From the NCBI GenBank assembly GCA_002867475.1, contig PKTL01000043.1, forward strand, positions 16,192 to 80,191: 64,000 bases of DNA, read 5' to 3'. A program made the translations under genes and the position numbers. This stretch comes from Candidatus Woesearchaeota archaeon. GTDB taxonomy: Archaea > Nanobdellota > Nanobdellia > Woesearchaeales > BM511. The notes beneath the pieces were generated by a model. It ran no database searches. It worked only from the letters and a program-made list of their open reading frames with translations, and was not told where the DNA came from. Below, one piece after another: positions 23,934-40,615 of this stretch (within the stretch, counting starts at the first letter, position 1; every line of letters starts with the position of its first letter).

Positions 23934-24706
23934 GCAATCTTGTTACATGGTTCAAGTATATCAGATCAAGCTTTTTGATAAGGATGGCTTACAGAGGTGA
24001 ATTCTTGATAAGTTTGGTTTCCATGTTTGCACTTGAAATGGTAGGACCTCTTTTTGCATATACTATTTACTTGAATTCTCCAGGTTTTGCTGGTTGGACA
24101 TTTTATCAGATCATACTACTTCAAGGAATACTTTTGTTTATCAAAGGTTTTAGTTATGTTCATTTTTTTGGGATAGTTTGGAACAGCAACATCAGTATTT
24201 GGAGAGGTACTTTGGATTTCATATTCTTGAAACCTAGAAATTTATTGTTGACTTTTATTTTTAGCTCATATGATGTTGAGGATAATGCTAAAATGCTTGG
24301 TGGAATAGCACTTATTGGATTTGCACTTTATCATATTGAATTCACTTTTACAAAGATTCTTCTTATGATTTATTTGATAATTTTAGGAATAGTGTTATTT
24401 TTTGCATTTGCACTTTTGTTCAGTGCTTTTATCATAAGGTTTATTCAGACTTGGAGATTGTATGAGTTTCTTGAGATAATTCTTATGATTGCTCAGTACC
24501 CAAATAAGATCTATCCTCAATATGTTTCAGTGATATTTACTTCTATCATTCCTTTGTTTGTCGCAGGGGTTTTCCCTGCAGAAGCTTTGATTGGTAGTGT
24601 TGTGCCTAATGTTTTATTAATGACTTTTTCGGTAGTTTTTATATTTTCAATTAGTTTATATACTTGGTTTAATGTATTAAAGCATTATTCAAGCGCAGGT
24701 GGATGA
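23930..24706 (+). CDS. ABC-2 family transporter permease (second subunit)
   Basis: Polytopic; ATGA-type overlaps on both sides. Confidence 0.55.
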   Translation: MSNLVTWFKYIRSSFLIRMAYRGEFLISLVSMFALEMVGPLFAYTIYLNSPGFAGWTFYQIILLQGILLFIKGFSYVHFFGIVWNSNISIWRGTLDFIFLKPRNLLLTFIFSSYDVEDNAKMLGGIALIGFALYHIEFTFTKILLMIYLIILGIVLFFAFALLFSAFIIRFIQTWRLYEFLEIILMIAQYPNKIYPQYVSVIFTSIIPLFVAGVFPAEALIGSVVPNVLLMTFSVVFIFSISLYTWFNVLKHYSSAGG

Positions 24707-25689
24707 TGGAAAAGATTATTATTGTTGAAAGATTGAAAAAAGAATTTAAGAGTTTCAATAGAAGTGAGTCTTTTGTTGAAGCTTTGAAATCTTTGGTTAA
24801 GCGTGATTACAAAGTTACTAAAGCTGTTGATGATATCAGTTTTTCTATTTCTAAGGGAGAAATTGTCGGTTTTCTTGGTCCTAATGGTGCGGGTAAAAGT
24901 ACAACTATCAAGATGCTTTCAGGAATCGTTTATGCTGACTCAGGAAATATTGAAGTTTTAGGTTTCAATCCGTGGAAGGAAAGGATAAAGTATGTTGGTA
25001 ATATTGGCGTTATATTTGGTCAGAAATCTCAGCTTTTTTGGGACTTACCACCTATTGATGCATTTTACATGAATAAAGAGATATATAATATTGATAAGAA
25101 AATCTTTGATGATACTCTTGAGTATTTTGTCAGATTGCTTGATCTTTTTGAGATCATGAAAAAGCCGACTAGGCAGCTTAGCCTTGGTGAGCGTATGAAG
25201 TGCGAGTTTGTAATGAGCATGCTTCATAGACCTAAAGTGGTTTTTTTAGATGAACCAACAATTGGTTTGGATGTCTTTGCTAAAGAGACTATACGTAAGT
25301 TCATCAAAGATATGAATAAGAAGTTTGGAACAACTTTTATAGTTACAAGTCATGACCTAGAAGATATTGAAAACCTTTGTGATAGAGTTATCATTATCAA
25401 CCATGGAAAAATAGTGTTCGATGATGATGTTTCAAAATTAGTTGTTAAAGACAAAAAGTACATCACTGTCAAGTTTTATGAAAAAATTGATTTTGATAAG
25501 TTGAGTAAGGTTAAAGAGATTAAGATTCTTGATAGAATTTCTGAGCATTCTGTAAGACTTGAAGCCAATGTGAAAAAGATCTATGTTGATGAATTAATAA
25601 AAAAGATTCGAATGGGTAAAAGGATTGAAGATTTAGAAATATCTAATCCTCCTATAACTGAAATAATAAAGAAATTATATAAGGATTGA
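24703..25689 (+). CDS. ABC transporter ATP-binding protein
   Basis: Walker A GPNGAGKST, ABC signature LSLGERMKC, Walker B VVFLDEPTIGLD. Confidence 0.85.
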   Translation: MMEKIIIVERLKKEFKSFNRSESFVEALKSLVKRDYKVTKAVDDISFSISKGEIVGFLGPNGAGKSTTIKMLSGIVYADSGNIEVLGFNPWKERIKYVGNIGVIFGQKSQLFWDLPPIDAFYMNKEIYNIDKKIFDDTLEYFVRLLDLFEIMKKPTRQLSLGERMKCEFVMSMLHRPKVVFLDEPTIGLDVFAKETIRKFIKDMNKKFGTTFIVTSHDLEDIENLCDRVIIINHGKIVFDDDVSKLVVKDKKYITVKFYEKIDFDKLSKVKEIKILDRISEHSVRLEANVKKIYVDELIKKIRMGKRIEDLEISNPPITEIIKKLYKD

Positions 25690-27117
25690 TTATCCTTTTA
25701 TTACACCTAACGGTTTGACTTTTGCTACAAGTTTTCCTATTCCTGCTTCGTGTGAAACTTTCACCACTTCGTCAATATCTTTGTATGCTTCTGGTGCTTC
25801 TTCAACTATTCCTTTTTTAGATGCTGACTTAATATGAATATTATGTGATTCTAGTTCCTTTACTACTTCGTCTGCTTGCATGCTTTTCATCGCTTGGAAC
25901 CTGCTCATCTTTCGCCCTGCTCCATGAGCTGTTGAACCGAATGATTCTTCCATTGCTTTTTCTGTTCCTACTAGTATATAGCTTGATGTTCCCATTGAAC
26001 CTGGCAATAGTATTGGTTGTCCTGTTGGTTTATAGTCTTCTGGGAGTTCAGGTCTGTTTGGTGCGAATGCTCTTGTTGCTCCTTTCCTATGGACTATAAG
26101 TTCCTTTTCTTCTCCGTTTATAGTATGCTTTTCTAGTTTTGCGATGTTATGTGCTACATCATAGACTGTCTTTAAAGTTGCTTCTTTTCCAAATACTTCT
26201 TCAAAACTTTTTCTTACATTGTGTGCTATGATATGTCTGTTTGCCCATGCAAAGTTTGCAGCACCAATCATTGCACTGTAATAATCCTGGCCGAGTTTTG
26301 AACTGAATGGTGCGTAGATAAGATCTTTTTCTGGAAGTTCTTCTATTATATTTGGATACTCGTCTTCCATCTTTCTTAAGTAGTCACTGCATACTTGGTG
26401 ACCTAAGCCTCTACTTCCGCAGTGTATCATTACAACGATCTGGTTCTTTTCTTTTATTCCGAAAACACTTGCTTTTTCTTTATCGTAAATTTCATCTACT
26501 ATCTGCACTTCTAAGAAATGGTTTCCTGCACCTAGTGTTCCTAGTTGCCTTCTTCCTCTTCCTTTGCATTTCATTGAAATCAGTTTTGGGTCGCACCCAG
26601 GCATTGATCCTTCTTCTTCAGAGTGTTTTAAGTCGTCTTCGTTTCCAAAGCCTTGTTCGACTGCCCATCTCGCACCGTTTTTTAGGACTGCGTCTACTTC
26701 GTCGTCTGACAGTTTCATCTCTGATTCGCTGCCTACGCCTGACGGTACATTTTTGAAAAGTGATTCTAGTAAAGGTTCTATTTTTGGTTCTACTTCTTCT
26801 TTTGTTAGATTTGTTGCTAGAAGTCTTACTCCACAATTTATGTCAAAACCGATTCCGCCTGGAGTTATAATTCCTTCTTCTTTGTCGAAAGCTGCCACTC
26901 CACCTATGGAGAAACCGTAGCCCTTATGTGAGTCGGACATCATGATACTTGCTTTCTGTATTCCAGGTAATTTACTTACATTTATTCCTTGAGCTAGCGC
27001 TCCATCCGCTTCTATAGCATCTATTAATTTATCTGACGCGAACACTTTTACAGGGACATTCATATCCTCTTCTTTTTCTACAGTATACATTGAATCAGTG
27101 GTTTTTTCTAGTTTCAT
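25690..27117 (-). CDS. rtcB: RNA-splicing ligase RtcB
   Basis: GSMGTSSYIL and STAHGAGRKMSR motifs; 475 aa. Confidence 0.9.
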   Translation of the reverse strand: MKLEKTTDSMYTVEKEEDMNVPVKVFASDKLIDAIEADGALAQGINVSKLPGIQKASIMMSDSHKGYGFSIGGVAAFDKEEGIITPGGIGFDINCGVRLLATNLTKEEVEPKIEPLLESLFKNVPSGVGSESEMKLSDDEVDAVLKNGARWAVEQGFGNEDDLKHSEEEGSMPGCDPKLISMKCKGRGRRQLGTLGAGNHFLEVQIVDEIYDKEKASVFGIKEKNQIVVMIHCGSRGLGHQVCSDYLRKMEDEYPNIIEELPEKDLIYAPFSSKLGQDYYSAMIGAANFAWANRHIIAHNVRKSFEEVFGKEATLKTVYDVAHNIAKLEKHTINGEEKELIVHRKGATRAFAPNRPELPEDYKPTGQPILLPGSMGTSSYILVGTEKAMEESFGSTAHGAGRKMSRFQAMKSMQADEVVKELESHNIHIKSASKKGIVEEAPEAYKDIDEVVKVSHEAGIGKLVAKVKPLGVIKG

Positions 27118-27165: not shown

Positions 27166-28034
27166 TTATTTTAGAATTTTCTTCTTTTTCATATCAAGAT
27201 TATTATTTTTAGACATTACTGTTCTTCCTATTCTTTTTTCTATACTTTTTCTTGTTTCATTTGCTACTTCTCCACCTTCTTTAGCAGATTCGTTACATTC
27301 ATCAAAACCTTGAGAATCATTTTCTATTGTTATATCAGTTGTAGCTTTTTCACCAACCATAGTTAGTATCAATTCCCAATCATTCACACATGAAGACTAT
27401 AAGTCTTCAGTGCACAGAAGAATACTAATTCTTCTTGTGTGTGATCTCTTAAGTTCTGCTTTTTTAATTTTTTAAAATCCTTATATTCTCCAACAGTTTT
27501 ACCAAATGTTGCTTTACTAATTTCATTTGTCAATATTGCGAATTCATTTTCGTTTTTTACATCTCTATTTTTCCATTCGTCGGTTAATTCTTGTCTTATT
27601 ACAATACCTCTTAATCTTTTATCTATCCACTCTTTTGGATATCCTTTTAATTCATAATATTCTTTGATTCTATCTTGACCCAATTCAGGATTTTCTATCT
27701 CTTGTATTCTTTCATAACCTGTTTTAGCTAACCATTGTTTGAAAGGTTCAGCTTTTTTTGAAGGAATCGATTGAATTATACGAAAAAGATTCTTTGTATT
27801 TGCACAATCAGTAAAATAAGATTTTCCATCTGAAGAAGATAATTTCAGTTGTACCCAAATTGGGGACAACTCAAGCACTTTAAATTCTCTATCTTTAACT
27901 TTTCCCCAATATTGTCTTGGCTTGGGACTTTCAGTTAAAACTTCAACAACATCAACTATTGAGAAATACCATTCATCATTGAACCAAATCCTTCTAATGT
28001 TCTTATCTTGGAAAACTATTATTTTATCATTCAT
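27166..28034 (-). pseudogene. DinD-like Bro-N (KilA-N superfamily) gene split into 216-aa and 73-aa pieces
   Basis: N-terminal Bro-N domain (IRRIWFNDEWYFSIVDVVEVL); C-terminal ILTNEISKATFG ... NLRDH, then a stop. The remainder (ELILTMVGEKATTD ... GGEVANETRK ... VMSKNN) continues in another frame with a 4-nt overlap. Hairpin gaagactATAagtcttc at the junction. Confidence 0.5.
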
Positions 28035-28086: not shown

Positions 28087-28230
28087 TTTAACATATAATT
28101 AACTCCTTAGTGGTAACAAAATCGAAAGATTTATATACTCATCCACATTAAACAATATATTAAATATGGCAAGTTTTATAAAAGAAAAACACTGTATTTA
28201 GTAAAAACTAATATTCACAAGGTGATAGAT

Positions 28231-29037
28231 ATGAAGAAAAAACTAGTTACTTTAGCAGCAATCACAGCTTTTGGTGCTACACCAGCTGTTGCTTTAGATC
28301 AAGAAGAAATCGACGCAATGTTTTCTGCTCCTAACGCTCCAAAACAAGAAGAAGTTATGGGAATAGCACAAAAAGGCGGACTTATAGACATCGTAACAAA
28401 AGATAATAAGATTCTAAGATTCAATGATGAATGGACAACTCTACAAGATGCAAATGGAGGAGATTATCACACTCTTGGTGCAACAGGAGTTACAAGAACA
28501 AAAAAGACCTCATTCTCAGATCCTGAAGATGTATTCACAGTAAGTGATTATGGACTTGACCAATCAAAAGTTGATGAAAACGGACAACTATCCCTTTTTG
28601 CTTCATACCTTATTGATGGACCTGCAAAGATTGATGGAATATCCGCAGCTACCAATCCTAGAAAAGATGGATATGATTTTTTAGTATTATCAGAAGGTAA
28701 CCTATACGAATCAAACATGGTTGATGGAGTACTAGTTGTTGACACAACACCAGTTGACAGTATTGACGCAGCAGTTGTTGGTTTTGACAACATGAACGGC
28801 GGAAAAAGAGCAACAGTCACAAACAATGATTACACACTGACTAAAGAAAAAGACGGCAGAGTTATCTTTGAAAGAAGCACAGACCTACAACCAGGAGAAA
28901 CAGAATATCCAATAATCATCGCACCAGGAGAAGCTTGCAGTCTTGACTTGATTGCAGCAGGAGAACAAGCATGCCAAGATGGATATGTTTGCAAAGCAAA
29001 TGATTATCCAATAAAATACAACTGCTTATTAGAATAA
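28231..29037 (+). CDS. Secreted protein with C-terminal 4-Cys module
   Basis: AGGTGA RBS; signal peptide MKKKLVTLAAITAFGATPAVA; C-terminus GEACSLDLIAAGEQACQDGYVCKANDYPIKYNCLLE. Confidence 0.6.
   Translation: MKKKLVTLAAITAFGATPAVALDQEEIDAMFSAPNAPKQEEVMGIAQKGGLIDIVTKDNKILRFNDEWTTLQDANGGDYHTLGATGVTRTKKTSFSDPEDVFTVSDYGLDQSKVDENGQLSLFASYLIDGPAKIDGISAATNPRKDGYDFLVLSEGNLYESNMVDGVLVVDTTPVDSIDAAVVGFDNMNGGKRATVTNNDYTLTKEKDGRVIFERSTDLQPGETEYPIIIAPGEACSLDLIAAGEQACQDGYVCKANDYPIKYNCLLE
28981..29037 (+). repeat. 57-nt exact direct repeat (copy 1) encoding GYVCKANDYPIKYNCLLE plus stop
   Basis: Identical to 29231..29287. Confidence 0.9.
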
Positions 29038-29068
29038 AAATATGAAACAATTTTGGAGGAAACACGAA

Positions 29069-29287
29069 ATGAAATTTTTTGCAATATTTATGTTAATACT
29101 TAGCTTTTTAGCTAGTTTTTTTGGACCAGTAGATTCACCAACAGGAGAGGTTATAGTTAATCCAGAACCTGCACCTATTGAAGCTGGAGAAATCTGTGAC
29201 CCAAATGACTCAAATCAAATTTGTGAAGAAGGATATGTTTGCAAAGCAAATGATTATCCAATAAAATACAACTGCTTATTAGAATAA
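29069..29287 (+). CDS. Small secreted cysteine-rich protein (~72 aa) sharing the C-terminal module
   Basis: GGAGG RBS 10 nt upstream of ATG 29069; signal/TM MKFFAIFMLILSFLASFFG; C-terminus EICDPNDSNQICEEGYVCKANDYPIKYNCLLE. Confidence 0.55.
   Translation: MKFFAIFMLILSFLASFFGPVDSPTGEVIVNPEPAPIEAGEICDPNDSNQICEEGYVCKANDYPIKYNCLLE
29231..29287 (+). repeat. 57-nt exact direct repeat (copy 2)
   Basis: Identical to 28981..29037. Confidence 0.9.
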
Positions 29288-29371: not shown

Positions 29372-29668
29372 ATGACTGGTCAAGGAGATGATATTAGAGA
29401 TAAATTCAATTCTTTAGTTAGTAATCTCCAAAAATTAGGGTTTTCTTTTGATGAAATACTTTCCATGATGAGTTCTGATTTTGAATCTGATAAAACCCTT
29501 ATTCCCTTAGAAGTATTTCGAACCCGAGACCTTGGAGCGCTTGAAAGCTTAACTGTTTTTCTAAAAGAGAAAAAGGACATGAAATTCTCTGAAATAGGCA
29601 AAGCCTTGGAAAGAGATCAAAGAACTATCTGGACAACATACAATAAAGCAAAGAAGAAACTAGAATGA
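29372..29668 (+). CDS. Sigma-70 region 4-like / LuxR-type HTH DNA-binding protein
   Basis: IPLEVFRTRDLGALESLTVFLKEKKDMKFSEIGKALERDQRTIWTTYNKAKKKLE matches the sigma70_r4 pattern; ATGA overlap with the giant gene. Confidence 0.55.
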   Translation: MTGQGDDIRDKFNSLVSNLQKLGFSFDEILSMMSSDFESDKTLIPLEVFRTRDLGALESLTVFLKEKKDMKFSEIGKALERDQRTIWTTYNKAKKKLE

Positions 29669-32600
29669 GAACCAATAAAACCATAATCAAAATATTGATG
29701 ATTCTTCTAGTTAGTGTTATCTTTTCTCAAATAGGTTTGAGTTTTAATTTCAATTGCACTTCAGATAGTGTTCTAACAGAATTTAGTGGATCTGACACTG
29801 TGAATTGGATTATTGAAAATGATACTATATGTGAAAATGTATACATTGAACTTTCAAGAAATATTACAATAAGTACAAATGGAAGATTAGAATTTAGAAA
29901 TGTAACACTTGACATGAATGTTTTAGGAAATGATGGAAATATAGGAATAGAAGTTGAACCAAATAGCAATGGAATATTCATTTATGATTCAAGAATTCAA
30001 AGTATGACAGCTAATAATTATTTCTGGATTGTGAATCAAAGTTTTATAATGGATAGAACTAATGTAAGTAATTGTGGATATGCAATACCTAGCAATAACC
30101 CTGGAATAAATTTATTTTATGGAAATTCAAAAATTAATAATTCTAAAATAAATGAAGGTTTCATCAATTTATATATTAATTCAGAAAATAATACTATTGA
30201 GAATACACAAATATCAGATTCGAATTATTATCCAATCTTCTTTGCAACATCCAATAATAAAATAATAAATTCAAACATTACTAATGGAACAAGAGGTATT
30301 TATTTTGATTCTAATGTAAATAACATTACTATTAATAAAATAATTATAAAAGATATTTCTAGTTCCGCATATTATCTTGAATTCACTAATAATGACCAAA
30401 TATTAATTAATAATTCTATAATTAATATTACAAGTATAAATCATGGAATTTATGACTCGGCAAATACTTTAAAATTAACAATTATAAATTCGAAAATTGA
30501 TAATAATTTTGATAAAAAAAGTATCACAATAGATAACGAATTTTCAAATATTAAAATATATAATTCTACTATTGATAAAAATAAAATTACCATAACAGGA
30601 ACTCAAGCCAATATCACATTCAAGGAATATGTTAATTTTCATGTTAATGGATCTGATGGAGCTGATTATTTGAATGATGTTGTTGTGAAGTTATATGATA
30701 ATAGCACTAATTCATACGGACCAACAGCAAATTATACATTAACAACTGGAACACCCTATGATCCAGGTTACACTGCGATGCTTACAGTTATAGATATGAT
30801 AATGTATAATGGATATAACACCTCATACAGCCCATACAATGTTACATTCAACAAAACAGGTTATAAGTTCTATTGGAACAATAGTTATTTCTTCAACAAA
30901 TCAGAAACGCATTACGTAACCCTTGACCCAATAACACCTCTAACATGTGAGGGATTATTTTCTGATAATGGAAATGTTATAATCACTGAAGACTTAACTT
31001 GTGAAAACTTAACAATAATAGCACAAAACGTTACAGTCAACAACAGTGCAAGGTTGATATTGAAAAACACCACGCTAATAATAAATGAAACAGCCATAGG
31101 ACATCCATCAATAATCAATATAACAAATGAAGCAGCAGGTATTGAATTACAAAACAGTACGATAAAAGGTCTTAATGATAATGATTATGATTTTATATCT
31201 TATTCAAATACATTAATAAATCATAGTTTAATAAAAGATGTTGGCAGTTCAACAACTATAAATGGATTACATATATACACAAATAATGCGATTATCATAA
31301 ATTCTAGATTTGAAAATAATTATGAAGACCTAGTATTAAAAGGAGATAACTTTACATTAGAAAATCTTGAACTCATAAACTCATACAATAACGGAATAAG
31401 AATTGGAGCTGATTCATTTAATCCTTTAACAAATAGTAAATTCAAAAATATAAGTATAAATAGTTCAGGAAAAGGAATAATAATACAGGATAATTCAAAT
31501 AATCATTATTTTGAAAAATTATTTATAACAAATGATGAAATTGACACAGGAGAGGTATTAATATCCTTAAACAAAGCATATAATTTAACTTTTAATGATT
31601 CAATTTTTAACATATCACAATCTACTGGAAGCAGTGCATTTTCTATTGATTTTAATTCTGCTAATTTTACATTAATAAATTCAAAAATCTATAATCTTGG
31701 AGAAAGTGCAACCGAAATAAAACTCATTGGAAATTCATTTATTAATATAATAAACTCTTCTTTTGATAGATCAAAGATAGAATATGTTTCTTTCACAGGG
31801 AATATCTCTTTCTATGAATATATTAAATTTAAGATATATAATGACAGTGTCTATACAGAGGCGTTATTTGATGTTAACCTAACCTTGAAAGACAACATAT
31901 CCAAAAATGAAAAATATAATCTTACAACTGATGAAAGTGGTTACACAAACACCATTTTAGTTCTTGATGGAGTTGGAAACAGCTCATATGATGGAGTGCA
32001 TTATAATTATGCATACAGCCCTTATAATATAACCTTTGAAAAGGAAGGTTACATTACTAAAAACTTAACTTTCTACCTTAATGAATCAACAACTTTTGAA
32101 GCTAACATATCAATGATAGCTGAACCATCTTCAGATTACATTTTAGTGGAACTGATCAATCCTATAACTATAAGTGAGAACAAGACACCTACAGTTACGT
32201 TCAAGGTTAATGGGAGCATGACAGGATACTTTAATTGCTCATTAAGAACAAATATCACAGGTCATGATTATGAATATAATGAAAGTGTGGTAAATAATAC
32301 TCCTACAAGCCTAACCTTTGCTACTGACTTACCTACAGGATCCCATAAGTATTGGGTTAACTGCTCAAATAATGAGATAAATAATGTTTCAAATAACATA
32401 ACATTATTGATTGTTGAAGAGAACCCTTCAATAAACTTGTTAAGCCCAAAAAATAATAACGTAACAACAAATACTAGCCAAATATTCACTTTTAATTTCA
32501 CAGATACTTATTCAAGTACGGCAAACTGTTCGCTTATAATAAACGGATCCATATACAGGTATAACAGCACTGTTTTGAACAACACACCAACAGATATAAA

Positions 32601-35600
32601 CCAGGAATTAAGTATTGGAAACTATAACTGGACTATTAACTGTACAGACATATATGGTAATATTGGAAGCGATGATGGAAGAAACCTGACAATAGAAGCG
32701 TTAGATCAAACAGGACCAACACCGATAACCTATTCACCAACAACTGGCACAAGTAGAGAATATGATAAATACAGGCAAGATTATTTCAATGTTACATGGA
32801 CAGATATTAGTGGAATAGAAAATGTAAGAATCTATAATAATTTTTCAAATGGAATATGGAATAATTATGAAGTTTCTAACATCAGCAACTCATATTATTA
32901 TAATACCACTAATATCAAACCAGGAAGATATGCTTGGTATATGAATGCAAGTGATACAGAAGGAAACTCGAACTGGACAGGATACATAGATTATATAATA
33001 ACAAAAAGCACAAACGATCAATTGATATTAACAATAAATGGAACAGAATCAAGCACCCCATTTTTGCAAAGAAAAACTTCTCTTTGGATAAATGGTTCAA
33101 GCAATAACCAAGACATAGGATTGACACTTTTTGTAGATTATGAAAATTTGAGCTATGGAATAAATGTCAGCAACTTTTATTTTTTCAATGAATCAGGATT
33201 GAAGATTGTTAATTTAACAATGGATGCAAATGATAGATTTGAAATAACGAATAAAGTTCTTACAGTCCAAGTTAATGACACTATCCCTCCAGCAAAGATA
33301 AATAATCTTCAAGCAACCCACATAACTTATGATATGATAAACTGGACATGGACACTTCCATCAGGAGAGGATGATATCAATAAGGCTGAAGTTTGGATAG
33401 ATGGAGAGCTAGTTGAAAACATAACGAACCCTTATGGACAAACCTATTTCGATTACTCAACCACTCAAAACACACTTGTTAATATTAGTGTTAGACTAGT
33501 GGATGATTATAATAATACTGGCGAAGAATTTAATACGTCTAATAGGACATTAAGGATAAATTATGCTCCAACAACATACTTAGAAAAACCAGATAACAAC
33601 ACCCAGATAAATAATAGTTTGAGTGTTACTTTCAATTTCACAGCATATGATGAGCTTCCCATCTATTTAAATTGCTCATTAAAAGTTATGGATAATATAG
33701 ATAGTAATATAACAATCTTTAACTTATCAGCCTATAGCGGAACACCTAGAATCTATACAAATAGTTCAATATTTTCATATAATCATTCATACTCTTGGTC
33801 TGTGAACTGTACAGATGGTGAATATTATAATATCTCAGACACATATTATTTCAACATAGCAGACACTTTACCTCCTGCAAAGATAAATAATCTTACTAAC
33901 TTAACTGGAGACAGTTGGATATATATCACTTGGTACAATCCTTCTACTGATTTCAATCACACAGAAGTTTGGTTTAATGATTCATATTATGACACTTTTA
34001 ATGACACATATCAAACCTTAAACATTACAGGATTGGATGACAATACAATTTATAATTTTAACATCACAGCGTATGACATATATAATAATGGTAACACAAC
34101 ATTGTTTAATATAACTACTGAAGTTGGGGATTATTCTGCCCCCTATATCAACTATCCTCAAATGCCTGAAAGTGGAACAATAACAAATAATGAAAGCGTG
34201 ATTTTCAATATCACTGCAAGTGATGATTCAGGAGGAACAATATCCTGTAATCTTACAATATATAATTCATCATCAACCATGATTGAATCCCAAACATTGA
34301 ACATATTAAGCGGCACATATGGATCAACAACTGTAAATCTTCCTGATGGAGAATATCATTGGAATTTTACCTGTGTTGATTATGATAGCAATCAAGCAAA
34401 TAGCACAACCTACCTATTGACTGTTGATACAACTCCACCATTTTATAGCGACCTATGGAATAATACTGATGGAGGATCAACATTTAATGAATCATATGAT
34501 TATCTTTTCAAGATCAGATGGAATGATACGATTACAGAAATTACAAATGTTTGGTTCGAAAACAACTTAACAAATAATCCTCTAGTAAATAGCACACCTT
34601 CACAAAATGGAAACTTATACACATATTCACCATCTACACCTCTTAAGCCAGGAACATATGCATATAAATGGTATGCAAGAGACAATGCAAATAATTTCAA
34701 TAATACAGAACTATTCACATTCACAATCAATAAAGCTGAACCAGCCTTAATGCTAAAATTAGATGGATCAGAACAGAACATCACTTATCTTGAAAGAAAG
34801 GATAACGTGACAGTTTATGCAATGATCACTAAGCCTAGCACAGAAACAATAACTGTGACATTACAGAACAGCTCAGGAACTTTTAGCATAGATCAATATA
34901 CAACCTTGCAATTTAATGAAGTAGGAATCTCAAACATCACTGCATCTTTTGAAGGAAACGAAAATTACACATCAAAAAACATAACGTATTATGTGAATGT
35001 TTCTGATAATGTAGGGCCTGAAGATGTGGTTATAGATCAAACAGTTATTACTACTTCTTATTTTTTCATACAATGGAATGATTCAACATCTGATGATTTC
35101 AATCATACAGAAGTATTGATAGATAATATTAATTATGACCATGGAGCTGATACTTTTATTAACCTTAATACTCCATCAGAGACAGAATATGAAGTGCTTA
35201 TAAGACATTTTGATATATATGGAAATAATGGTTCATGGACAAATATCACAATAACTACATTATCAAACATTCCAAGTATAGAATTATTATATCCAACAGA
35301 TTATTTGCTCATAAGCAACATGAAATCTGTTAATCTAACATTCAATGTCACAGATGAATCAGATTATGTTAATTGCACAGCTTATATTTATGGAAGAACT
35401 AATACATCCTTCTCAAAAACATATAACAATCTCTACACACAGGTTGGAACCCCTTATACTTTCAATACAGGAGAAATATTAGAATATAACAATACCTATA
35501 ATTGGTCAGTAAATTGTAGCGATCCTTACAATTACAGTGTTTCAAACACCCAAGCTTTTGGTATTATAGATACAAATCCTCCAATAATATCAAACATCAA

Positions 35601-38600
35601 CATCTATAACATAACAGATTCCAGCGCGATAATCAATTGGACAACAAACGAACCTTCAAACTATAGCATTGAACTAAAAGACATTCCAAGAATAGACTTT
35701 TCAACACTTGATACAACTCATGCTAGACTGATAGAAGGATTATCACCTTCAACATATTATGATATCAACATAACAGCATGTGACCTATATAATAATTGCA
35801 TAAAAGATGATTCAAAAAATCTGACAACAACCAATTTCGTATATGATATTTCAGTATCTTTGATCAACCCAATAGCTGATGCTTGGATACCCTATAACAA
35901 CAACATAACTTTTAATTTTTCAGTGAATGGAAATGTTGAGATAATGAGCTGTAACCTATCTATTGATGATAACAGAAGCGAATACTTCAACAAGATAAAT
36001 ACAACAATAGAAAATTATAGTACAACCTTCTACAATCTAGAATTTAAATACCATAATTGGAGCGTTACCTGCAATCATTCTGATAATGTATGGAGCGATA
36101 TTAGATATTTCAACCTAACAAACGATTACGATAACGACACTTATAATATTGGAACAGGAACAAATGAAGACTGTGATGATACAAACCCAAATATACACCC
36201 AGGAGTTGCAGATAACACAGATGATAATATAGATAACGATTGTGATGGAGACATTGATGAAGATTATAGTCCACCAAGTTCTAGTGGAGGAGGAAGCGTA
36301 AGTTTGCCTCCTGAAGAAGAAATTATTGAAGAAGAACCAAAAAATGAAACCGTTGAAGAAATAATAAATGAAACAATTGAGATAACTGAAGAGATTCCAG
36401 GAATAATAAATGAGACAAATGAGACTTCTGTTTGGGATTTCATAAATGAAAGCATAAATTTGTTCAATGAAACAGATATACCTGAAGAGATAAATGAAAC
36501 TGTTGAAGAAATCAAAAATGAAACAATTGAAGAAATCATAAATGAAACAATAGTAATAGAAAATGATGATAACTCAACAGATACTGATGATGAGTTGGTT
36601 GAGAAAAATGAATCGATATTTGAACTTCCTTCAAAACTTGATCTTGAAACTCCAAAAAAGGAAGCTGAAACACCTGATGAGAAAAAGGAGAAATCCACTA
36701 GTTCAGGAATAACTGGAATAACTGATAGGATAGGTGTAAAAAAGGAATATTACCATAAAGAAAATAATACTGTCATAAATTTCACGATAAAAAATAAAGG
36801 TATAGTGCCTTACAAAAAACTTGGCATTTTCATAAATATACCAAAATTCATAGCTGAAAGCACTGATAAGATGATAGGTAATTTCTATATAATCAGAAAA
36901 GATCCACAGATAGCTTATGTTTTCACAAATTTTAGCGGAAAAACATCAAAGACTATAGAGTTTCAAATAAAAGACAGACTTCTTAGTGATGAAGAGATTG
37001 AAAAGATCACATACTATACTAATTCAGAGATATCAAAGGAATATGTAGATTCCTTGAAAAAGAAAGCAAACGAGACGTACGATGCTATTAAGATTAAAAA
37101 AGAGATAATCCAATATGATGATAAGACAGAGTTCACAATAGAGCTTGAACCTATAAACGAGACAGAGAACGTCACATTATATTTGGATATTCCTAAATGC
37201 TTAGCTGAAAAGATCGAAGAGATAGAATTCGAACTAGAAGATTATGAGATCCTTGATGATGACCCTTTAATAGCATTTAATTTTGCAACCCTAACTGACA
37301 CTAAAACCTTGAATTTTGAAGTGTTAAAAGCAATCGACCCAGATTGCTGGGAGCTAGTAAAAACCACACCGATCGCTGAAAAGATAAAAGATAAGATAAT
37401 TGTAAAAGATGAGAAAAGCATGTTCTTCTCTATTGGCATCCTTCTTTTTGTACTCTTATCTACACTATCATTCAACTATTTGCAAATGCAAAGCAAGAAA
37501 AAGCATGGTAAAGGAATATTAGAAAAACTTGAATTTGGAATGGTCGAAATAATCTTAATACTAATAATAACTCTTAACATAATGGATTTCTTCAAGCTTC
37601 TAAATCCGGATCTTGATTTTGCAAAAAAGATTCTTTCATGGTCTCTTCTTGGAATACTTCTATATGAAGCAAGGCTTGAAAAAATATTTTATGGCACTGA
37701 AAGAAGATTTGAAACCTTACTTTTAATTATCGCTAATTTCTTCATGTTCTCAAGAGTGTTTGTTGATGTAGTCTTTGTATTATATAATGAGATTGTTGAG
37801 AAAAGGCTTGATTCATATGTTATTCACCTATATCAATTCGTGATTGACTTTGAACTTTCCCACCCTGGATTAATTGTAAGCATCGGAAGCATCATAGGAT
37901 TTAGTATGTTAATAATCCTTTCCTTCCTTGATGTTTTCAAAAATGTGAAGAAACCGAGCCTGCTTGAAGTACTGCATGTTGATGGAAAACCGAAAGGAAT
38001 AGGACAAGGTATCAAGAGATTCCTTATAAGTATGATGCTTTACTTGACATTTTTCATAGTGTTCTTCAATTTCTTCATGGAATGGCTTGCTATAAGTGTT
38101 GATGCTGCATTGATGGTTGTTGCAATAGTAGTATATGGAATAAGGTTTATAGTTAAGCAATATCATCATTACCATGAGGATCATATAATAAACAAGATAG
38201 GTAATATAGGTGAAGAATTTTATGAACAGTTCATAAATCTTTTCAAGTACAAGCACACAGTTTTCTTTGGCCTTGCTGGAATACTTGTACTTCACTTAAT
38301 AGTTGATATTGGAAATTTCATAATGCCTTTCATATTCAATTTTGAAGACATGATGTATTTCATACAAAGCGGAGTACCACACTTAAGCCTTCTTCATATA
38401 CTGATGAATCTTTATAGCCAAGATATATTAGCAAACATTGTCATAACCCTAAATTATTTGCTAAATATAAGTTTCATAATAATGATTTTGATATTCCCAG
38501 CATACATCTGGTATGACACATATAAGAATCATATAATAAATTTTAGAAGGTGGATCGTCGCATTTTTTTACATCGCAGTATCTAACTATCTAATCTCCCC

Positions 38601-39204
38601 TCTAGTGAAACTATCAAGCATAAGCAATGCTGACATATTAGGTGTTGATCTAATATTCAAGTCAAGCGTTACAGGCGATCCTTTGATGACACTACTAATA
38701 AGCATAGGTGTTGGAATAGTTGCATTTATCCTATCTTATAATCTTATATTGAAAACAGTGATAAAACTCATTGGATTTATTCCCGTATTAATATTTATAA
38801 TGATATATGTCACTTATTATGTGAATAGTTGGATAAGCAATCTTTTCCCACAGATTGTTGCTGCTGTTGCTAGTGCTACTTTGATCAATCTTTTCCTAGG
38901 AATACTTATGAGCTTCTTCATGACTGCGATAGTCATATTCTACATAGGTTCATTCATATATTTCATAAAACTCATATACACTCAATGGTTCGTGAAAAAA
39001 TATGCTTTTGCACACCTTGCAAAAAAATACAAGGATGTTATAAAAGAGCACTGCAAGACAGATCAAGATAAGCAAGTGATCTATAAAGCGATAAAATACA
39101 TTGAGTATATGAGGAAAAGAGAAGTGTCTGACCTTGAGATTGAAGAAACTTTAGCAAATAAAGGTATGAAAGAAGAAGTGATAAAGGACATCATATACCT
39201 ATAA
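29665..39204 (+). CDS. Giant (3179 aa) membrane-anchored surface protein: signal peptide, parallel beta-helix (PbH1) repeats, FN3-like domains, Cys-rich D/C motif, acidic NET repeats, C-terminal polytopic membrane domain
   Basis: Uninterrupted 9.5 kb ORF. N-terminus MRTNKTIIKILMILLVSVIFSQIGLSF. NxxIxNN-type beta-helix repeats (NSKINNSKINEGFINLYINSENNTIENTQISDS ... NGIRIGADS ... GKGIIIQDNSNN). Numerous N-x-S/T sequons. FN3-like PPAKINNL ... WTWTLP segments. DCDDTNPNIHPGVADNTDDNIDNDCDGDIDED at nt 36169-36267. EEIINETIE repeats. About 12 or more TM helices from nt ~37420. Confidence 0.85.
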   Translation: MRTNKTIIKILMILLVSVIFSQIGLSFNFNCTSDSVLTEFSGSDTVNWIIENDTICENVYIELSRNITISTNGRLEFRNVTLDMNVLGNDGNIGIEVEPNSNGIFIYDSRIQSMTANNYFWIVNQSFIMDRTNVSNCGYAIPSNNPGINLFYGNSKINNSKINEGFINLYINSENNTIENTQISDSNYYPIFFATSNNKIINSNITNGTRGIYFDSNVNNITINKIIIKDISSSAYYLEFTNNDQILINNSIINITSINHGIYDSANTLKLTIINSKIDNNFDKKSITIDNEFSNIKIYNSTIDKNKITITGTQANITFKEYVNFHVNGSDGADYLNDVVVKLYDNSTNSYGPTANYTLTTGTPYDPGYTAMLTVIDMIMYNGYNTSYSPYNVTFNKTGYKFYWNNSYFFNKSETHYVTLDPITPLTCEGLFSDNGNVIITEDLTCENLTIIAQNVTVNNSARLILKNTTLIINETAIGHPSIINITNEAAGIELQNSTIKGLNDNDYDFISYSNTLINHSLIKDVGSSTTINGLHIYTNNAIIINSRFENNYEDLVLKGDNFTLENLELINSYNNGIRIGADSFNPLTNSKFKNISINSSGKGIIIQDNSNNHYFEKLFITNDEIDTGEVLISLNKAYNLTFNDSIFNISQSTGSSAFSIDFNSANFTLINSKIYNLGESATEIKLIGNSFINIINSSFDRSKIEYVSFTGNISFYEYIKFKIYNDSVYTEALFDVNLTLKDNISKNEKYNLTTDESGYTNTILVLDGVGNSSYDGVHYNYAYSPYNITFEKEGYITKNLTFYLNESTTFEANISMIAEPSSDYILVELINPITISENKTPTVTFKVNGSMTGYFNCSLRTNITGHDYEYNESVVNNTPTSLTFATDLPTGSHKYWVNCSNNEINNVSNNITLLIVEENPSINLLSPKNNNVTTNTSQIFTFNFTDTYSSTANCSLIINGSIYRYNSTVLNNTPTDINQELSIGNYNWTINCTDIYGNIGSDDGRNLTIEALDQTGPTPITYSPTTGTSREYDKYRQDYFNVTWTDISGIENVRIYNNFSNGIWNNYEVSNISNSYYYNTTNIKPGRYAWYMNASDTEGNSNWTGYIDYIITKSTNDQLILTINGTESSTPFLQRKTSLWINGSSNNQDIGLTLFVDYENLSYGINVSNFYFFNESGLKIVNLTMDANDRFEITNKVLTVQVNDTIPPAKINNLQATHITYDMINWTWTLPSGEDDINKAEVWIDGELVENITNPYGQTYFDYSTTQNTLVNISVRLVDDYNNTGEEFNTSNRTLRINYAPTTYLEKPDNNTQINNSLSVTFNFTAYDELPIYLNCSLKVMDNIDSNITIFNLSAYSGTPRIYTNSSIFSYNHSYSWSVNCTDGEYYNISDTYYFNIADTLPPAKINNLTNLTGDSWIYITWYNPSTDFNHTEVWFNDSYYDTFNDTYQTLNITGLDDNTIYNFNITAYDIYNNGNTTLFNITTEVGDYSAPYINYPQMPESGTITNNESVIFNITASDDSGGTISCNLTIYNSSSTMIESQTLNILSGTYGSTTVNLPDGEYHWNFTCVDYDSNQANSTTYLLTVDTTPPFYSDLWNNTDGGSTFNESYDYLFKIRWNDTITEITNVWFENNLTNNPLVNSTPSQNGNLYTYSPSTPLKPGTYAYKWYARDNANNFNNTELFTFTINKAEPALMLKLDGSEQNITYLERKDNVTVYAMITKPSTETITVTLQNSSGTFSIDQYTTLQFNEVGISNITASFEGNENYTSKNITYYVNVSDNVGPEDVVIDQTVITTSYFFIQWNDSTSDDFNHTEVLIDNINYDHGADTFINLNTPSETEYEVLIRHFDIYGNNGSWTNITITTLSNIPSIELLYPTDYLLISNMKSVNLTFNVTDESDYVNCTAYIYGRTNTSFSKTYNNLYTQVGTPYTFNTGEILEYNNTYNWSVNCSDPYNYSVSNTQAFGIIDTNPPIISNINIYNITDSSAIINWTTNEPSNYSIELKDIPRIDFSTLDTTHARLIEGLSPSTYYDINITACDLYNNCIKDDSKNLTTTNFVYDISVSLINPIADAWIPYNNNITFNFSVNGNVEIMSCNLSIDDNRSEYFNKINTTIENYSTTFYNLEFKYHNWSVTCNHSDNVWSDIRYFNLTNDYDNDTYNIGTGTNEDCDDTNPNIHPGVADNTDDNIDNDCDGDIDEDYSPPSSSGGGSVSLPPEEEIIEEEPKNETVEEIINETIEITEEIPGIINETNETSVWDFINESINLFNETDIPEEINETVEEIKNETIEEIINETIVIENDDNSTDTDDELVEKNESIFELPSKLDLETPKKEAETPDEKKEKSTSSGITGITDRIGVKKEYYHKENNTVINFTIKNKGIVPYKKLGIFINIPKFIAESTDKMIGNFYIIRKDPQIAYVFTNFSGKTSKTIEFQIKDRLLSDEEIEKITYYTNSEISKEYVDSLKKKANETYDAIKIKKEIIQYDDKTEFTIELEPINETENVTLYLDIPKCLAEKIEEIEFELEDYEILDDDPLIAFNFATLTDTKTLNFEVLKAIDPDCWELVKTTPIAEKIKDKIIVKDEKSMFFSIGILLFVLLSTLSFNYLQMQSKKKHGKGILEKLEFGMVEIILILIITLNIMDFFKLLNPDLDFAKKILSWSLLGILLYEARLEKIFYGTERRFETLLLIIANFFMFSRVFVDVVFVLYNEIVEKRLDSYVIHLYQFVIDFELSHPGLIVSIGSIIGFSMLIILSFLDVFKNVKKPSLLEVLHVDGKPKGIGQGIKRFLISMMLYLTFFIVFFNFFMEWLAISVDAALMVVAIVVYGIRFIVKQYHHYHEDHIINKIGNIGEEFYEQFINLFKYKHTVFFGLAGILVLHLIVDIGNFIMPFIFNFEDMMYFIQSGVPHLSLLHILMNLYSQDILANIVITLNYLLNISFIIMILIFPAYIWYDTYKNHIINFRRWIVAFFYIAVSNYLISPLVKLSSISNADILGVDLIFKSSVTGDPLMTLLISIGVGIVAFILSYNLILKTVIKLIGFIPVLIFIMIYVTYYVNSWISNLFPQIVAAVASATLINLFLGILMSFFMTAIVIFYIGSFIYFIKLIYTQWFVKKYAFAHLAKKYKDVIKEHCKTDQDKQVIYKAIKYIEYMRKREVSDLEIEETLANKGMKEEVIKDIIYL

Positions 39205-40101
39205 ATCTAATTTATTTAACATATTGAAAGTTTCTTTATCAAATCTAGAAAAAGCAAACCACTTCTTTCCAAGATCTTTAAGTGATGCTCCAAAATGAAA
39301 CACTTCTTTTTCATCTATGATTAAAAACCTATCATGTGAATCTTTAAATTCCTTAATTTCTATATTTGGATTTTGAGAATTATATTTTTTTAGGTCAAGA
39401 ATTAATTTCTTTGTTAAATTTTTTGTTAAAATAGTTGCTTTAACATTTTTATCTCTTTTACTTAAAATAGTTAAAACAGAATCATCAATGTAATTATCTA
39501 TTAATATTATTGATTTATTAGCACTTCTAATAATATCAGATACTAATTTATATGCATCAAAAATTTCTCCATCATAAAATATTCATTTATTTAAATTAAT
39601 ATTATTATTTTCTAATTTACTAAATATTTCCTTAAAATTTTTATCATGAATCAATTGCTTTGATTCAATATGATCTAATCTATTATTAATATTAAAATTA
39701 TTTGATATGATTTTTCTTAATTCTACAAAAGTATCTATTATTTGAAGACTTACAGTTATTGCAACTTTACTTCTTAAAACAGAAGAAAGCATAGCAACAC
39801 CTTGTTCTGTAAAAACATAAGGAAGAGAACCACCCAACTGCTGGTTAGAAGGTATCGCAAAATGCGATACCTTTTCTTTTGTGATCACAGATTGTGACCT
39901 TAAATTTTCAATTTCTTCTAAAGTTAATTGAAACATAAATCTTGAAGGAAACCTTTCAATATTTCTTTTTACTTGTTCTCTAATACGGATGGGTTTTACT
40001 TGATATAATTCTGCTAAATCCTTATCAAACATTACTTGTTTTCCCCTTATTTTATAAATTTTATTTTTTATATTATTCTCTAATATGATTTCATTAATCA
40101 T
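39199..40101 (-). pseudogene. ORF6N-domain (KilA-N superfamily) gene interrupted by an in-frame TGA at 39583-39585
   Basis: N-terminal part KIRGKQVMFDKDLAELYQVKPIRIREQVKRNIERFPSRFMFQLT ... GGSLPYVFTEQGVAMLSSVLRS is an ORF6N domain. After the TGA the same frame stays open for 127 codons with no start codon (IFYDGEIFDAYKL ... HDRFLIIDEKEVFHFGASLKDLGKKWFAFS), resembling the usual C-terminal region of this family. Confidence 0.55.
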
Positions 40102-40216: not shown

Positions 40217-40615
40217 CTATAAATCCATGACCATTATCACATGATCATCTGCATATTCGAAGTCATTATAAGTTATTGCTTTTATGTGCCCATGGGTTTC
40301 GTAGTTCTTGTATGAATCGCCAACTACTGTTGCTTTCACATTATTATCTTTTACTTCAATGCTTAAAACTTTATTCAATACGAAATCTTCAACGTCATGA
40401 TAATATAATAGTTCATCAAGAAAATCATATAGTAAGCCTCGTAGATTCTTTGCTTCAACTTCAATAGATATCTCTTTTACTGGTTTAACCTCTTTAGGAT
40501 TCACGATTATTCCAAACATTGCATATGCACAGTTCTCAAACTTCTCAGAGTCATTTCTTCCATATGCTTTGAACTTTGCGTCAGCAGTATGAGTCAAGTA
40601 TTCATATCTCATCAA
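40217..40615 (-). CDS. Archease (RtcB cofactor)
   Basis: YEYLTHTADAKFKAYG and HGHIKAITY motifs; 132 aa. Confidence 0.8.
   Translation of the reverse strand: MMRYEYLTHTADAKFKAYGRNDSEKFENCAYAMFGIIVNPKEVKPVKEISIEVEAKNLRGLLYDFLDELLYYHDVEDFVLNKVLSIEVKDNNVKATVVGDSYKNYETHGHIKAITYNDFEYADDHVIMVMDL

Follow-up and report, generated by a model that had tools for sequence, protein, structure and literature searches.

A giant woesearchaeal surface protein that ends in a twelve-helix membrane domain, and a possible adhesin and membrane-base system

The attachment of DPANN archaea to their hosts and their exploitation of them is an open question, and very few of the molecular players are known. Large surface proteins have been reported for DPANN, and the giant adhesin-like proteins of archaea are not known to be anchored other than by a single helix, a lipid anchor or the cell wall. 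Such giants include the adhesin-like proteins of methanogens (PMC11532034). The protein analysed here is encoded in a 64,000-nucleotide stretch of DNA from a Candidatus Woesearchaeota archaeon (the window). It resembles such giants in its beta-helix and Ig-like/Big repeats, its dense N-glycosylation sequons, its probably symbiotic organism and its presumed role in contact, whereas it differs from them in ending in a conserved 12-TM domain that also occurs free and lineage-wide. Literature searches on DPANN and Woesearchaeota surface proteins gave no description of this 12-TM family or of the architecture of the giant, and a broader search likewise brought up nothing relevant.

The eukaryotic adhesion GPCRs and polycystin-1 combine a giant adhesive ectodomain with a GAIN domain near the membrane and a domain of 7 or 11 TM helices. 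Like them, the giant joins an ectodomain of adhesion type that varies among relatives to a folded, conserved domain near the membrane, a polytopic domain with a conserved core of its own and a cytoplasmic tail; the likeness is one of functional analogy only. Its membrane-proximal module holds no GAIN domain with a GPS autoproteolysis site, and its membrane domain has neither the 7-TM (GPCR) nor the polycystin TM fold; homology of the beta-sandwich module to GAIN and adhesion GPCRs was rejected on test. Exosortases and archaeosortases sort PEP-CTERM and PGF-CTERM targets, and there as here one polytopic protein is genetically linked to many surface proteins in which a common C-terminal region precedes a TM helix and a tail of basic character; a target gene is often found next door. 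Unlike these sorting enzymes, the 12-TM family shows no Cys among the conserved columns of its 88-member alignment, a beta-sandwich of 120–250 aa replaces the short motif and the two genes are repeatedly fused; the exosortase and archaeosortase models of Pfam and NCBIfam gave no match.

The giant gene and its ectodomain

The gene is a single unbroken reading frame of 3179 aa (window 29665..39204, + strand), and its product is identical in sequence to the hypothetical protein PLW80313.1 from a MAG of Ca. Woesearchaeota. An earlier note, made from the letters alone, had proposed a single gene of about 9.5 kb from a DPANN-like source, and both points hold, as the frame is one and Woesearchaeota are DPANN archaea. 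The surroundings of the closest fused relatives (L004 and L005) have nothing in common with the window except the giant itself. The features along the protein are collected in Table 1.

Table 1. Features of the giant protein from its N-terminus to its C-terminus
Feature	Residues (aa)	Window positions	Strand	Basis
Signal peptide (predicted)	1-25	29665..29739	+	Hydropathy peak aa 7-25; basic n-region, 14-residue hydrophobic core
Distal module 1: right-handed beta-helix, then ~100-aa beta-rich domain	26-427	29740..30945	+	Pfam Beta_helix PF13229
Distal module 2: duplicate of module 1	428-835	30946..32169	+	Internal similarity
Stalk: about 14 Ig-like/FN3-like domains of ~95 aa	836-2160	32170..36144	+	Internal repeats, Cys positions, sub-threshold fn3/Big_13
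MopE-type Cys/Asp-rich putative metal-binding motif	2169-2199	36169..36261	+	Pfam PF11617
Acidic sequon-rich 'EEIINETI' linker	2200-2355	36262..36729	+	Tandem and internal repeats
Tandem beta-sandwich module at the membrane	2356-2574	36730..37386	+	'IPKxxAE ... DPxIxF' motifs; Cys pair in second sandwich
TM0, connecting helix, outside to inside	2583-2612	37411..37500	+	Hydropathy; helix 254-283 of composite model
12-TM domain, N-in/C-in	2618-3111	37516..38997	+	Homologue family, AF2 model, conservation, topology
Cytoplasmic tail, ending in small helical motif 'DLEIEETLANKGMKEEVIKDIIYL'	3112-3179	38998..39201	+	Three short helices in model

Two PbH1-type beta-helix modules and several FN3-like domains had been proposed for the extracellular part, and each proposal stands in part. 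In module 1, residues 170–319 matched Pfam Beta_helix with E 5.4e-6 and 26.6 bits, above the curated gathering score of 25.9. Module 2 has no Pfam match of its own and is tied to module 1 by internal similarity, residues 43–180 aligning to 433–567 (E ~1e-6) and residues 301–410 to 698–811 (E 7e-12). The stalk is indeed a run of repeated domains, six of which carry a conserved Cys pair, and contains a large internal duplication (aa ~1040–1480 and ~1615–2050); on the other side, the best fn3 (PF00041) scores in the giant, 19.8, 19.6 and 17.6 bits, fall below the 25-bit gathering score, and Big_13 reaches up to 26.6 bits, still below its cut-off. Size and repeat pattern alone thus weakly suggest an Ig/FN3-like nature for these domains.

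The dense N-glycosylation sequons, the Cys-rich motif of myxobacterial type and the acidic NET repeat linker, all three pointed out before, were each borne out. N-X-S/T sequons are dense along the stalk, and the ectodomain carries 169 of them against 68 ± 7 expected from composition-preserving shuffles (z = 14.7), a density of 6.6 per 100 aa compared with 0.46 in the neighbouring proteins. The ectodomain is thus adhesin-like and under strong selection for sequons, and its domain content makes a role of the giant in host attachment plausible. The Cys-rich motif matched Cu-binding_MopE above threshold and over the full length of the profile (positions 1–30; E 1.2e-6, 29.1 bits against a gathering score of 27), and recurs in the fused relative P0011 and, in four copies, in a separate partner protein at locus L042. 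What differs from the myxobacterial proteins is that one 31-residue copy sits here in an archaeal stalk, as a minor part of the protein and with metal binding putative. The linker that follows is built of 24-nt tandem repeats (36331–36551) and has an 18-aa internal repeat of 83% identity. The composite AF2 model has low pLDDT at its start, in this region, and the linker is probably a flexible glycosylated spacer.

The twelve-helix domain and its family

Twelve strong hydropathy segments lie in aa 2585–3094, and the AF2 models contain TM0 and 12 TM helices, 13 in all; both models are confident, with pLDDT 91 and pTM 0.89 for the 12-TM domain and pLDDT 88.9 for the composite model. Following the positive-inside rule, K+R in 88 family members amounts to 17.9 per 100 aa in the predicted cytoplasmic loops against 5.4 in the predicted outside loops. 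The C-terminus is thus supported as a true polytopic membrane domain and not a simple anchor, as the earlier note had held.

Judged by homology, the domain is a member of an undescribed Woesearchaeota/Nanoarchaeota family, whose taxonomic range is drawn from motif-seeded scans and MAG labels. A profile of the 88 members matched the window at full length by hmmsearch (E 5e-134, aa 2625–3114), and the family comprises at least 421 homologous sequence clusters that carry neither annotation nor a solved fold. Its members are mostly stand-alone proteins of ~490 aa (470–520 aa) that start exactly at TM1 of the giant's domain, and these free homologues, a search for which the earlier note had suggested, support the view of the domain as an autonomous conserved module. 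Further homologue searches returned one match for the membrane-domain profile and none for the module profile, apparently because hydrophobic or diverse words overwhelm the word index.

No Pfam or NCBIfam family covers the 12-TM domain, Pfam having also been run on the 88 members; the family profile matched no PDB sequence and the predicted fold no PDB structure. Fold similarity to known transporter and channel superfamilies (MFS, APC/LeuT, MATE, ABC, RND, GltPh and others) was likewise not found. An internal 6+6 repeat was sought by aligning the N-half with the C-half of the family alignment (hhalign), which gave a probability of 0.2%, structural repeats being often invisible in sequence. GT-C glycosyltransferases (AglB/STT3, PMT, ArnT) resemble the domain in being polytopic and in a context of heavily glycosylated proteins, and acidic residues occur at outer-face ends of helices and in the first extracellular loop, here as a D-x-D of moderate conservation and of a type that is not specific; the fold comparison, Pfam on the 88 members and the family profile against PDB sequences gave no match to them.

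The giant contains the family motifs 'FN(L/F)xMEWLA..VDA', 'LHLxxDxGxFxxP', 'PxxxWY' and 'GVD' and retains all conserved polar residues of the family. In giant numbering the conserved residues are N2802, E2806, W2807, D2813, H2877, D2881, Y2898, H2906, N2934, W2949, G2993, D2995, Y3048 and Y3093. Conservation of the outward-facing polar residues (E, W, D, H, D/E, N, Y) is as strong in 34 fused proteins as in 127 stand-alone ones (E2806 97%, W2807 100%, H2877 100%, Y3048 100%). The topology predicted from loop K+R places a conserved polar cluster on the outer side, with E2806/W2807/D2813 at the TM5-6 turn, H2877/D2881 in TM7 and also N2934, D2995, Y3048 and Y3093. The extracellular elements of the base include the helix at aa 2719–2732, the loop at 2892–2920 and the GVD hairpin at 2981–2998. 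At the outer membrane interface there are acidic residues, His, two Lys and the D-x-D, and TM1 is followed by 'P-x-D-L-D' (D2649 conserved 60–74%, D2651 71–75%), a motif type that is not specific.

Association with other surface proteins

The earlier note had overlooked the conserved tandem beta-sandwich beside the membrane, and also that this module, not the stalk, ties surface proteins to the 12-TM family by neighbourhood and fusion. The module is common to many Woesearchaeota surface proteins. Unfused partners keep the order of the giant, namely ectodomain, module, one TM helix and tail, and a TM helix follows the module within 60 aa in 28 of 35 complete C-termini. The conserved element ahead of it is a folded beta-sandwich of 120–250 aa, not a short motif, and behind the TM helix the proteins end in a tail that is basic or helical. 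In the giant, TM0 is followed by the basic cytoplasmic turn KKKHGK and is the counterpart of the one helix that anchors the unfused partners at their C-terminus.

Across 78 GTDB-species loci of the 12-TM family, 34 have a module-bearing gene, either fused (8) or separate within 3 kb (26, of which 18 within 300 bp). Module genes near stand-alone 12-TM genes lie within 3 kb in 33 cases against one farther away (binomial p = 8e-8). In the reverse test, 50 metagenome loci were seeded on the module motif alone, and 16 of them contain the 12-TM domain, 14 fused and two adjacent. Since a stand-alone 12-TM gene has no module gene within ±6 kb at 43 of the 78 loci, and since the flanks available at 34 of the 50 module-seeded loci (many of them on short contigs) lack a 12-TM gene, the pairing is not obligatory in gene order. 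The proximity statistics and the Rosetta-stone evidence of fusion suggest that the module-bearing surface proteins and the 12-TM family work together.

Among the best 150 homologues, all 12 fused relatives (>750 aa) carry the beta-sandwich module, and their ectodomains vary, including CBM96, cadherin-like and Big_9 domains. Fused proteins split into two separate clades in an NJ tree (drawn without support values), and fusion seems, from this tree, to have occurred at least twice. In clade-II fusions the stretch that joins TM0 to TM1 still holds the tail motif of the partner, which a read-through fusion would leave there. This motif, 'LxxxG(W/Y/M)xxxxIxx', is the one that closes the cytoplasmic tail of the giant; it also terminates the tails of unfused partner proteins and is N-terminal in some stand-alone 12-TM proteins. 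In the giant it has no Pfam assignment, and an identity as SAP, HeH or UBA was set aside after ten tails gave scattered sub-threshold Pfam matches. Around the stand-alone 12-TM genes, a search for conserved operon partners found loose recurrences (S49 peptidase, ABC-2 exporter, HIT, RDD). The first stand-alone locus inspected has proteasome and aCPSF1 neighbours.

Possible roles of the membrane base

Our preferred reading, which we hold tentatively, is that the giant is the covalently fused version of a lineage-specific adhesin-plus-membrane-base system, with docking and coupling that we infer from the patterns above. The two-part surface system appears to be specific to Woesearchaeota/Nanoarchaeota. 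One half would be a Sec-exported, heavily N-glycosylated adhesin-like ectodomain, composed from the tip inward of binding modules of beta-helix type, the Ig/FN3-like stalk, the metal knot of MopE type, an acidic spacer and the tandem beta-sandwich directly above the membrane. The other would be the 12-TM base with its predicted fold, a free protein in most relatives. The beta-sandwich module may be seated on the extracellular face of the base, a docking that would set the long adhesin on a footing of 13 helices, and what happens at the ectodomain, for instance when it binds another cell or a glycan surface, may be coupled to the base. The base itself would not be passive: it keeps the outward-facing polar cluster, whose probable target, to be bound or acted upon, is a small ligand at the outer leaflet such as an ion or a lipid head group. 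The cytoplasmic helical motif shared by both components may link them to a common intracellular partner.

A bolder version of this two-part reading, which we regard as doubtful, would make the 12-TM family the membrane core of an unrecognised DPANN-specific contact machine, into which fused or exchangeable giant adhesins plug by the tandem beta-sandwich. Engagement of a host surface would gate or activate the outward polar site, which would import a host lipid or metabolite or else signal across the membrane; prokaryotes would then have a counterpart to adhesion receptors whose membrane fold matches nothing in the PDB. Should the base turn out to transport or transduce in coupling with adhesion, membrane machines would gain a new class; as a mere dock, it would still explain how very long glycoprotein fibres are mounted. 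A hypothetical giant protein has become a defined, testable system, and the IPK/DP module, the GVD hairpin and the polar residues E2806/W2807/D2813/H2877/D2881 offer concrete targets.

It is also conceivable, though rather unlikely, that the base is a transporter or conduit at the contact site, namely a new secondary transporter or channel that imports host lipids or metabolites and that a fused or docked adhesin positions at the cell-cell contact. Twelve TM helices with N-in/C-in topology are the commonest transporter layout, conserved acidic, His, Asn and Tyr residues lie within TM5-8, TM11 and TM12, and most members stand alone and away from a partner gene, so that the domain must do something by itself. 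With their reduced genomes, Woesearchaeota probably rely on other organisms as partners. The transporter, channel or membrane-remodelling label given in the earlier note stays a proposal; among known transporters, channels and enzymes, neither sequence nor fold comparison gave a match to the domain.

The gene order looks like one base serving many partners, which would be just as expected of an enzyme or a biogenesis factor. In such a scheme, which we consider improbable, the base would be an outward-facing enzyme or insertase (compare sortase, glycosyl- or lipid-transferase, accessory insertase) that processes, modifies or inserts all surface proteins with module, TM helix and tail, and the fusion would hold one substrate in cis. 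Many different surface proteins share this C-terminal arrangement and only some are adjacent to a base gene, which recalls the exosortase/archaeosortase systems; the residues at the outer membrane interface would suit an enzyme, and at 7 loci the gene immediately upstream, in the same orientation, encodes an S49 peptidase of SppA type. However, with no conserved Cys the archaeosortase-type Cys/Arg/His triad is absent, and no fold match was found to GT-C enzymes, O-antigen ligase, rhomboid, CPBP or YidC. What the surface proteins have in common is a folded domain of 120–250 aa and not a short sorting motif, and an enzyme fused to its giant substrate, as in the 14 fused module-seeded loci, would be single-turnover.

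Large adhesins need firm anchoring, which a big fused membrane domain would supply, and the 13 helices might merely resist extraction of a long adhesin under load. This passive role is very improbable, since the near-invariant polar residues of the bundle are kept equally strictly in fused and free proteins, the free 12-TM protein is widespread without any ectodomain, and a single helix is evidently enough to anchor most module-bearing proteins.

Since the two components are adjacent but unfused in other genomes, a mis-assembly or sequencing error might have joined an adhesin gene to a downstream membrane-protein gene, an origin by frameshift or chimera that is scarcely credible and was ruled out by three public gene calls (NCBI, JGI and ENA) and by 34 other fused proteins from unrelated samples with the same junction architecture, which in the giant's clade includes a short conserved basic loop between TM0 and TM1. 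The protein has been assembled independently, the JGI entry (P0159) differing from the giant at one residue and the ENA entry (P0158) being the same sequence with its start called at Met12.

Gene and ectodomain

The 3179-aa surface protein (the giant) is the product of one gene and bears a glycosylated, adhesin-type ectodomain. An exact-sequence look-up matched the product of its single uninterrupted ORF to PLW80313.1 ('hypothetical protein C0585_03275'), from a Candidatus Woesearchaeota MAG; JGI's independent call of the gene departs from it at one residue, and the ENA call is identical from Met12. The G+C content of the window is ~30%, and the gene lies among archaeal housekeeping genes (RtcB, archease, Cdc48, Sua5) and an ABC-2 transporter. 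Because of the intact ORF, the Woesearchaeota record, the independent calls and these neighbours, the earlier note was right to read one ORF in a DPANN-like organism, and its proviso of multiple genes joined by a frameshift does not apply.

The same note had described the ectodomain as two beta-helix modules, FN3-like domains, a Cys-rich D/C motif and an acidic NET linker. The first ~400-aa module matches Pfam Beta_helix above threshold and the second is its paralogue by internal similarity. The repeated ~95-aa beta domains that follow, among which a large block is duplicated, are real, but their matches to Pfam fn3 and Big_13 stay below threshold, so 'FN3-like' is a description and not a membership. 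The Cys-rich motif proved to be a true MopE match with putative metal binding, and the linker is borne out by tandem repeats at the DNA level. These repeats are a possible site of between-strain length variation; the giant's three public copies are equal in length there. Dense N-glycosylation sequons were also found as described: the ectodomain holds 169 N-X-S/T sequons where its own composition would predict 68 ± 7 (z = 14.7). Their density is 6.6 per 100 aa, compared with 0.46 in neighbouring proteins, and the whole membrane domain holds one. Such an excess argues strongly for an extracellular location and glycosylation of the N-terminal 2,550 residues. A conserved tandem beta-sandwich (hereafter the module) stands next to the membrane.

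Coordinates of features in the window, in the giant and in loci of relatives (L0xx)
Feature	Where	Position	Detail
ABC-2 type exporter	window	23130-25689 (+)	two permeases and ATPase; ~4 kb upstream of giant
RtcB RNA ligase	window	25690-27117 (-)	
Bro-N protein	window	27384-28034 (-)	
Small Cys-motif ORFs	window	28222-29037 (+); 29042-29287 (+)	
98-aa ORF	window	29372-29668 (+)	
Giant	window	29665-39204 (+)	3179 codons
Tandem repeats	window	36331-36551	acidic NET linker; 24-nt (8-codon) repeats encoding EEIINETI-type units
ORF6N (KilA-N-type) protein	window	39583-40101 (-)	
Archease	window	40217-40615 (-)	RtcB cofactor
Signal-peptide-like N-terminus	giant	aa 1-25	
Two paralogous ~400-aa modules	giant	N-terminal part of ectodomain	similar to each other
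Chain of ~95-aa beta domains	giant	aa 836-2160	six with conserved Cys pair
Cys/Asp motif	giant	aa 2169-2199	PF11617 (MopE), Pfam
Module	giant	aa 2356-2574	
TM0	giant	aa 2583-2612	
Near-invariant residues	giant	N2802, E2806, W2807, D2813	TM5-6 turn
	giant	H2877, D2881	TM7
	giant	Y2898, H2906	loop after TM7
	giant	N2934	TM8
	giant	G2993-V-D2995	hairpin
	giant	Y3048, Y3093	
Small helical motif of partner tails	giant	aa ~3156-3179	C-terminal end
12-TM gene	L006	5998-7476	
Q/N/P/Y-rich extension carriers	L018; L023; L036	5776-7521; 3719-5551; 1313-3100	also proteins P0030, P0071
Stand-alone and fused paralogues	L029	219-1685 (+); 1757-6370 (-)	adjacent, convergent
ABC ATPase / ABC-2 permease	L058; L069	8198-9169; 9192-11165	
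Bro-N homologues	L055; L009	913-1743; 3512-4393	
ORF6N homologue	L060	1536-2192	

The membrane domain and its family

The membrane region has 13 helices, the last 12 of which (the 12-TM domain) constitute a family of their own: autonomous, confined to the lineage, unannotated and without a solved fold. Hydropathy gave 12 strong hydrophobic segments (aa 2585-3094), in keeping with the dozen helices first proposed. A search of 1.84 billion cluster representatives with aa 2572-3179 returned 421 relatives at E <= 1e-3, 171 of them at E <= 1e-30; most are stand-alone proteins of 470-520 aa, such as the earlier note had suggested looking for, in which a short basic N-terminus leads directly into the helix matching the giant's second hydrophobic segment. 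Among the best 150 of the 421, 12 are long (790-3179 aa) and carry the domain C-terminally. None has a Pfam domain there, 88 aligned members scanned against Pfam gave no recurrent family, an NCBIfam search with the giant gave nothing, and the family profile matched no PDB sequence. GT-C enzymes and standard transporter folds were excluded for the domain at the level of fold search.

Taxonomic range was assessed from motif-seeded scans and MAG labels: with each GTDB species represented by one genome, 80 loci were recovered, nearly all labelled Woesearchaeota, Nanoarchaeota, Nanobdellota or Nanoarchaeia. Many hits come from TPA bins that bear the name 'uncultured Methanosarcinales', apparently a placeholder. 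In L006 (JAFCCF010000030.1, labelled Candidatus Aminicenantes bacterium) the 12-TM gene lies on a bacterium-binned contig and its end is overlapped by ~10 bp by a module-bearing gene on the opposite strand; most likely, a Woesearchaeota contig was wrongly binned into a bacterial MAG. A stand-alone gene and a fused giant paralogue can occur together in one genome, as in L029 and in MAG MP5_5_87 (L007 and L033). Some stand-alone proteins have Q/N/P/Y-rich, low-complexity cytoplasmic N-terminal extensions of 75-180 aa with a prion-like look.

Since the ectodomain lies outside, TM0 must run from outside to inside, and the 12 helices after it therefore form an N-in/C-in bundle; across 88 stand-alone members, K+R per 100 residues is 17.9 in predicted cytoplasmic loops and 5.4 in predicted outside loops. 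On this predicted topology the near-invariant polar residues fall in the outer half of the membrane or on its outer face, and right after TM1 comes a D-x-D of moderate conservation, then two Lys. The polar cluster, every residue of which the giant has, is at least as strictly conserved in 34 fused as in 127 stand-alone proteins: in the fused set W2807, H2877, Y2898, W2949, G2993, Y3048 and Y3093 reach 100%, E2806 97%, D2813 91% and D/E2881 97%. Functional-site conservation is thus retained, and because a passive anchor would not need conserved polar residues, the domain's intrinsic function is, to judge from sequence, kept in cis in the fused proteins.

Linkage of module and membrane domain, and possible function

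The module is strongly linked to the 12-TM family by neighbourhood and by fusion. Among 78 loci with a family gene, taken from the GTDB-species scan and surveyed with a simple ORF caller, 8 hold fusions, 26 have a separate module gene within 3 kb (18 of these within 300 bp, usually as immediate neighbour) and 43 have none within +/-6 kb; over comparable flank lengths, 33 module genes lie within 3 kb against 1 further out (p = 8e-8). The adjacent partners (separate module-bearing surface proteins) start with a signal peptide and a variable ectodomain, which often bears MopE motifs; the module comes next, with one TM helix immediately behind it and then a short tail, a layout that matches the giant as far as TM0. 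In the reverse test, 50 metagenome loci seeded solely on the module motif, the 12-TM domain was fused in 14 and adjacent in 2. In most other module proteins the module is followed by one TM helix and a tail (28 of 35 complete C-termini), so the module is a general membrane-proximal element of the lineage's surface proteins, a sizeable subset of which is physically or genetically joined to a 12-TM protein.

In an NJ tree built on the 12-TM domain, drawn without support values, the two architectural types of fusion fall into separate clades. Clade I, with the giant, has a short basic TM0-TM1 loop; clade II keeps there a small helical motif, 'LxxxG(W/Y/H)xxxxIxxA', which also ends the tails of unfused partners and is what read-through fusion of a partner gene into the base gene would leave. 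The motif, to which Pfam assigns no family, also ends the giant, follows TM12 in one to three copies in other fusions and, in some stand-alone members, lies at the N-terminus on the cytoplasmic side.

Since domains found fused tend to interact (the Rosetta-stone argument), the module component and the 12-TM base would form a complex, with the module on the base's outer face and adhesion coupled to whatever the base does. We rank this docked, active-base complex first, though tentatively. A transporter acting at the contact site is a less probable reading, and slightly less probable again is a maturation or biogenesis enzyme for module-TM-tail proteins, which would suit the apparent one-to-many ratio of base to partners but sits poorly with the absence of a conserved Cys and of any known enzyme fold, and with how often stable fusions occur. 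A pure anchor is improbable given a polar cluster kept as strictly in fused as in stand-alone proteins, and that the giant is an artefact is scarcely credible.

The whole protein is best classed as a membrane-anchored giant adhesin whose membrane half comes from an undescribed family. Its ectodomain belongs among ordinary archaeal adhesin-like proteins; the closest analogy for the whole architecture, without homology, is with eukaryotic adhesion GPCRs and polycystin-1, whose defining GAIN and 7-TM features were looked for and not found. Exosortase/archaeosortase sorting systems show a similar genetic pattern, but their defining catalytic Cys is absent from the 12-TM family. Literature searches turned up no described counterpart of the two-component system.

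Genomic setting

In 13 loci the stand-alone 12-TM gene is followed, at a distance of 1-3 genes downstream, by genes for an ABC ATPase and an ABC-2 permease (clusters 3 and 4), and in 7 it has a gene for an S49 (SppA-like) peptidase directly upstream; these may represent a loose envelope-biogenesis neighbourhood. Two small ORFs lie directly upstream of the giant gene; both are hydrophobic at the N-terminus and close with almost the same 19 residues, Cys among them, '(D/E)GYVCKANDYPIKYNCLLE'. Neither belongs to a Pfam family or has relatives in the 80 related loci. The 98-aa ORF, whose stop overlaps the giant's ATG by 4 nt (ATGA), has no Pfam match and was not found beside fused relatives; its basic C-terminus, '...RDQRTIWTTYNKAKKKLE', resembles an HTH, so it may encode a small regulator co-transcribed with the giant.

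Bro-N and ORF6N genes flank the giant gene and could be recurrent regulators or mobile-element remnants: Bro-N homologues (58% identity) adjoin a module-bearing gene in L055 and lie ~1.6 kb from the 12-TM gene in L009, and in L060 the fused gene has an ORF6N homologue (42% identity) upstream of it. RtcB and archease are on the same strand ~13 kb apart, with the Bro-N gene, the small Cys-motif ORFs, the giant gene and the ORF6N gene between them, and it looks as if a giant-containing block had been inserted into an RtcB-archease neighbourhood.
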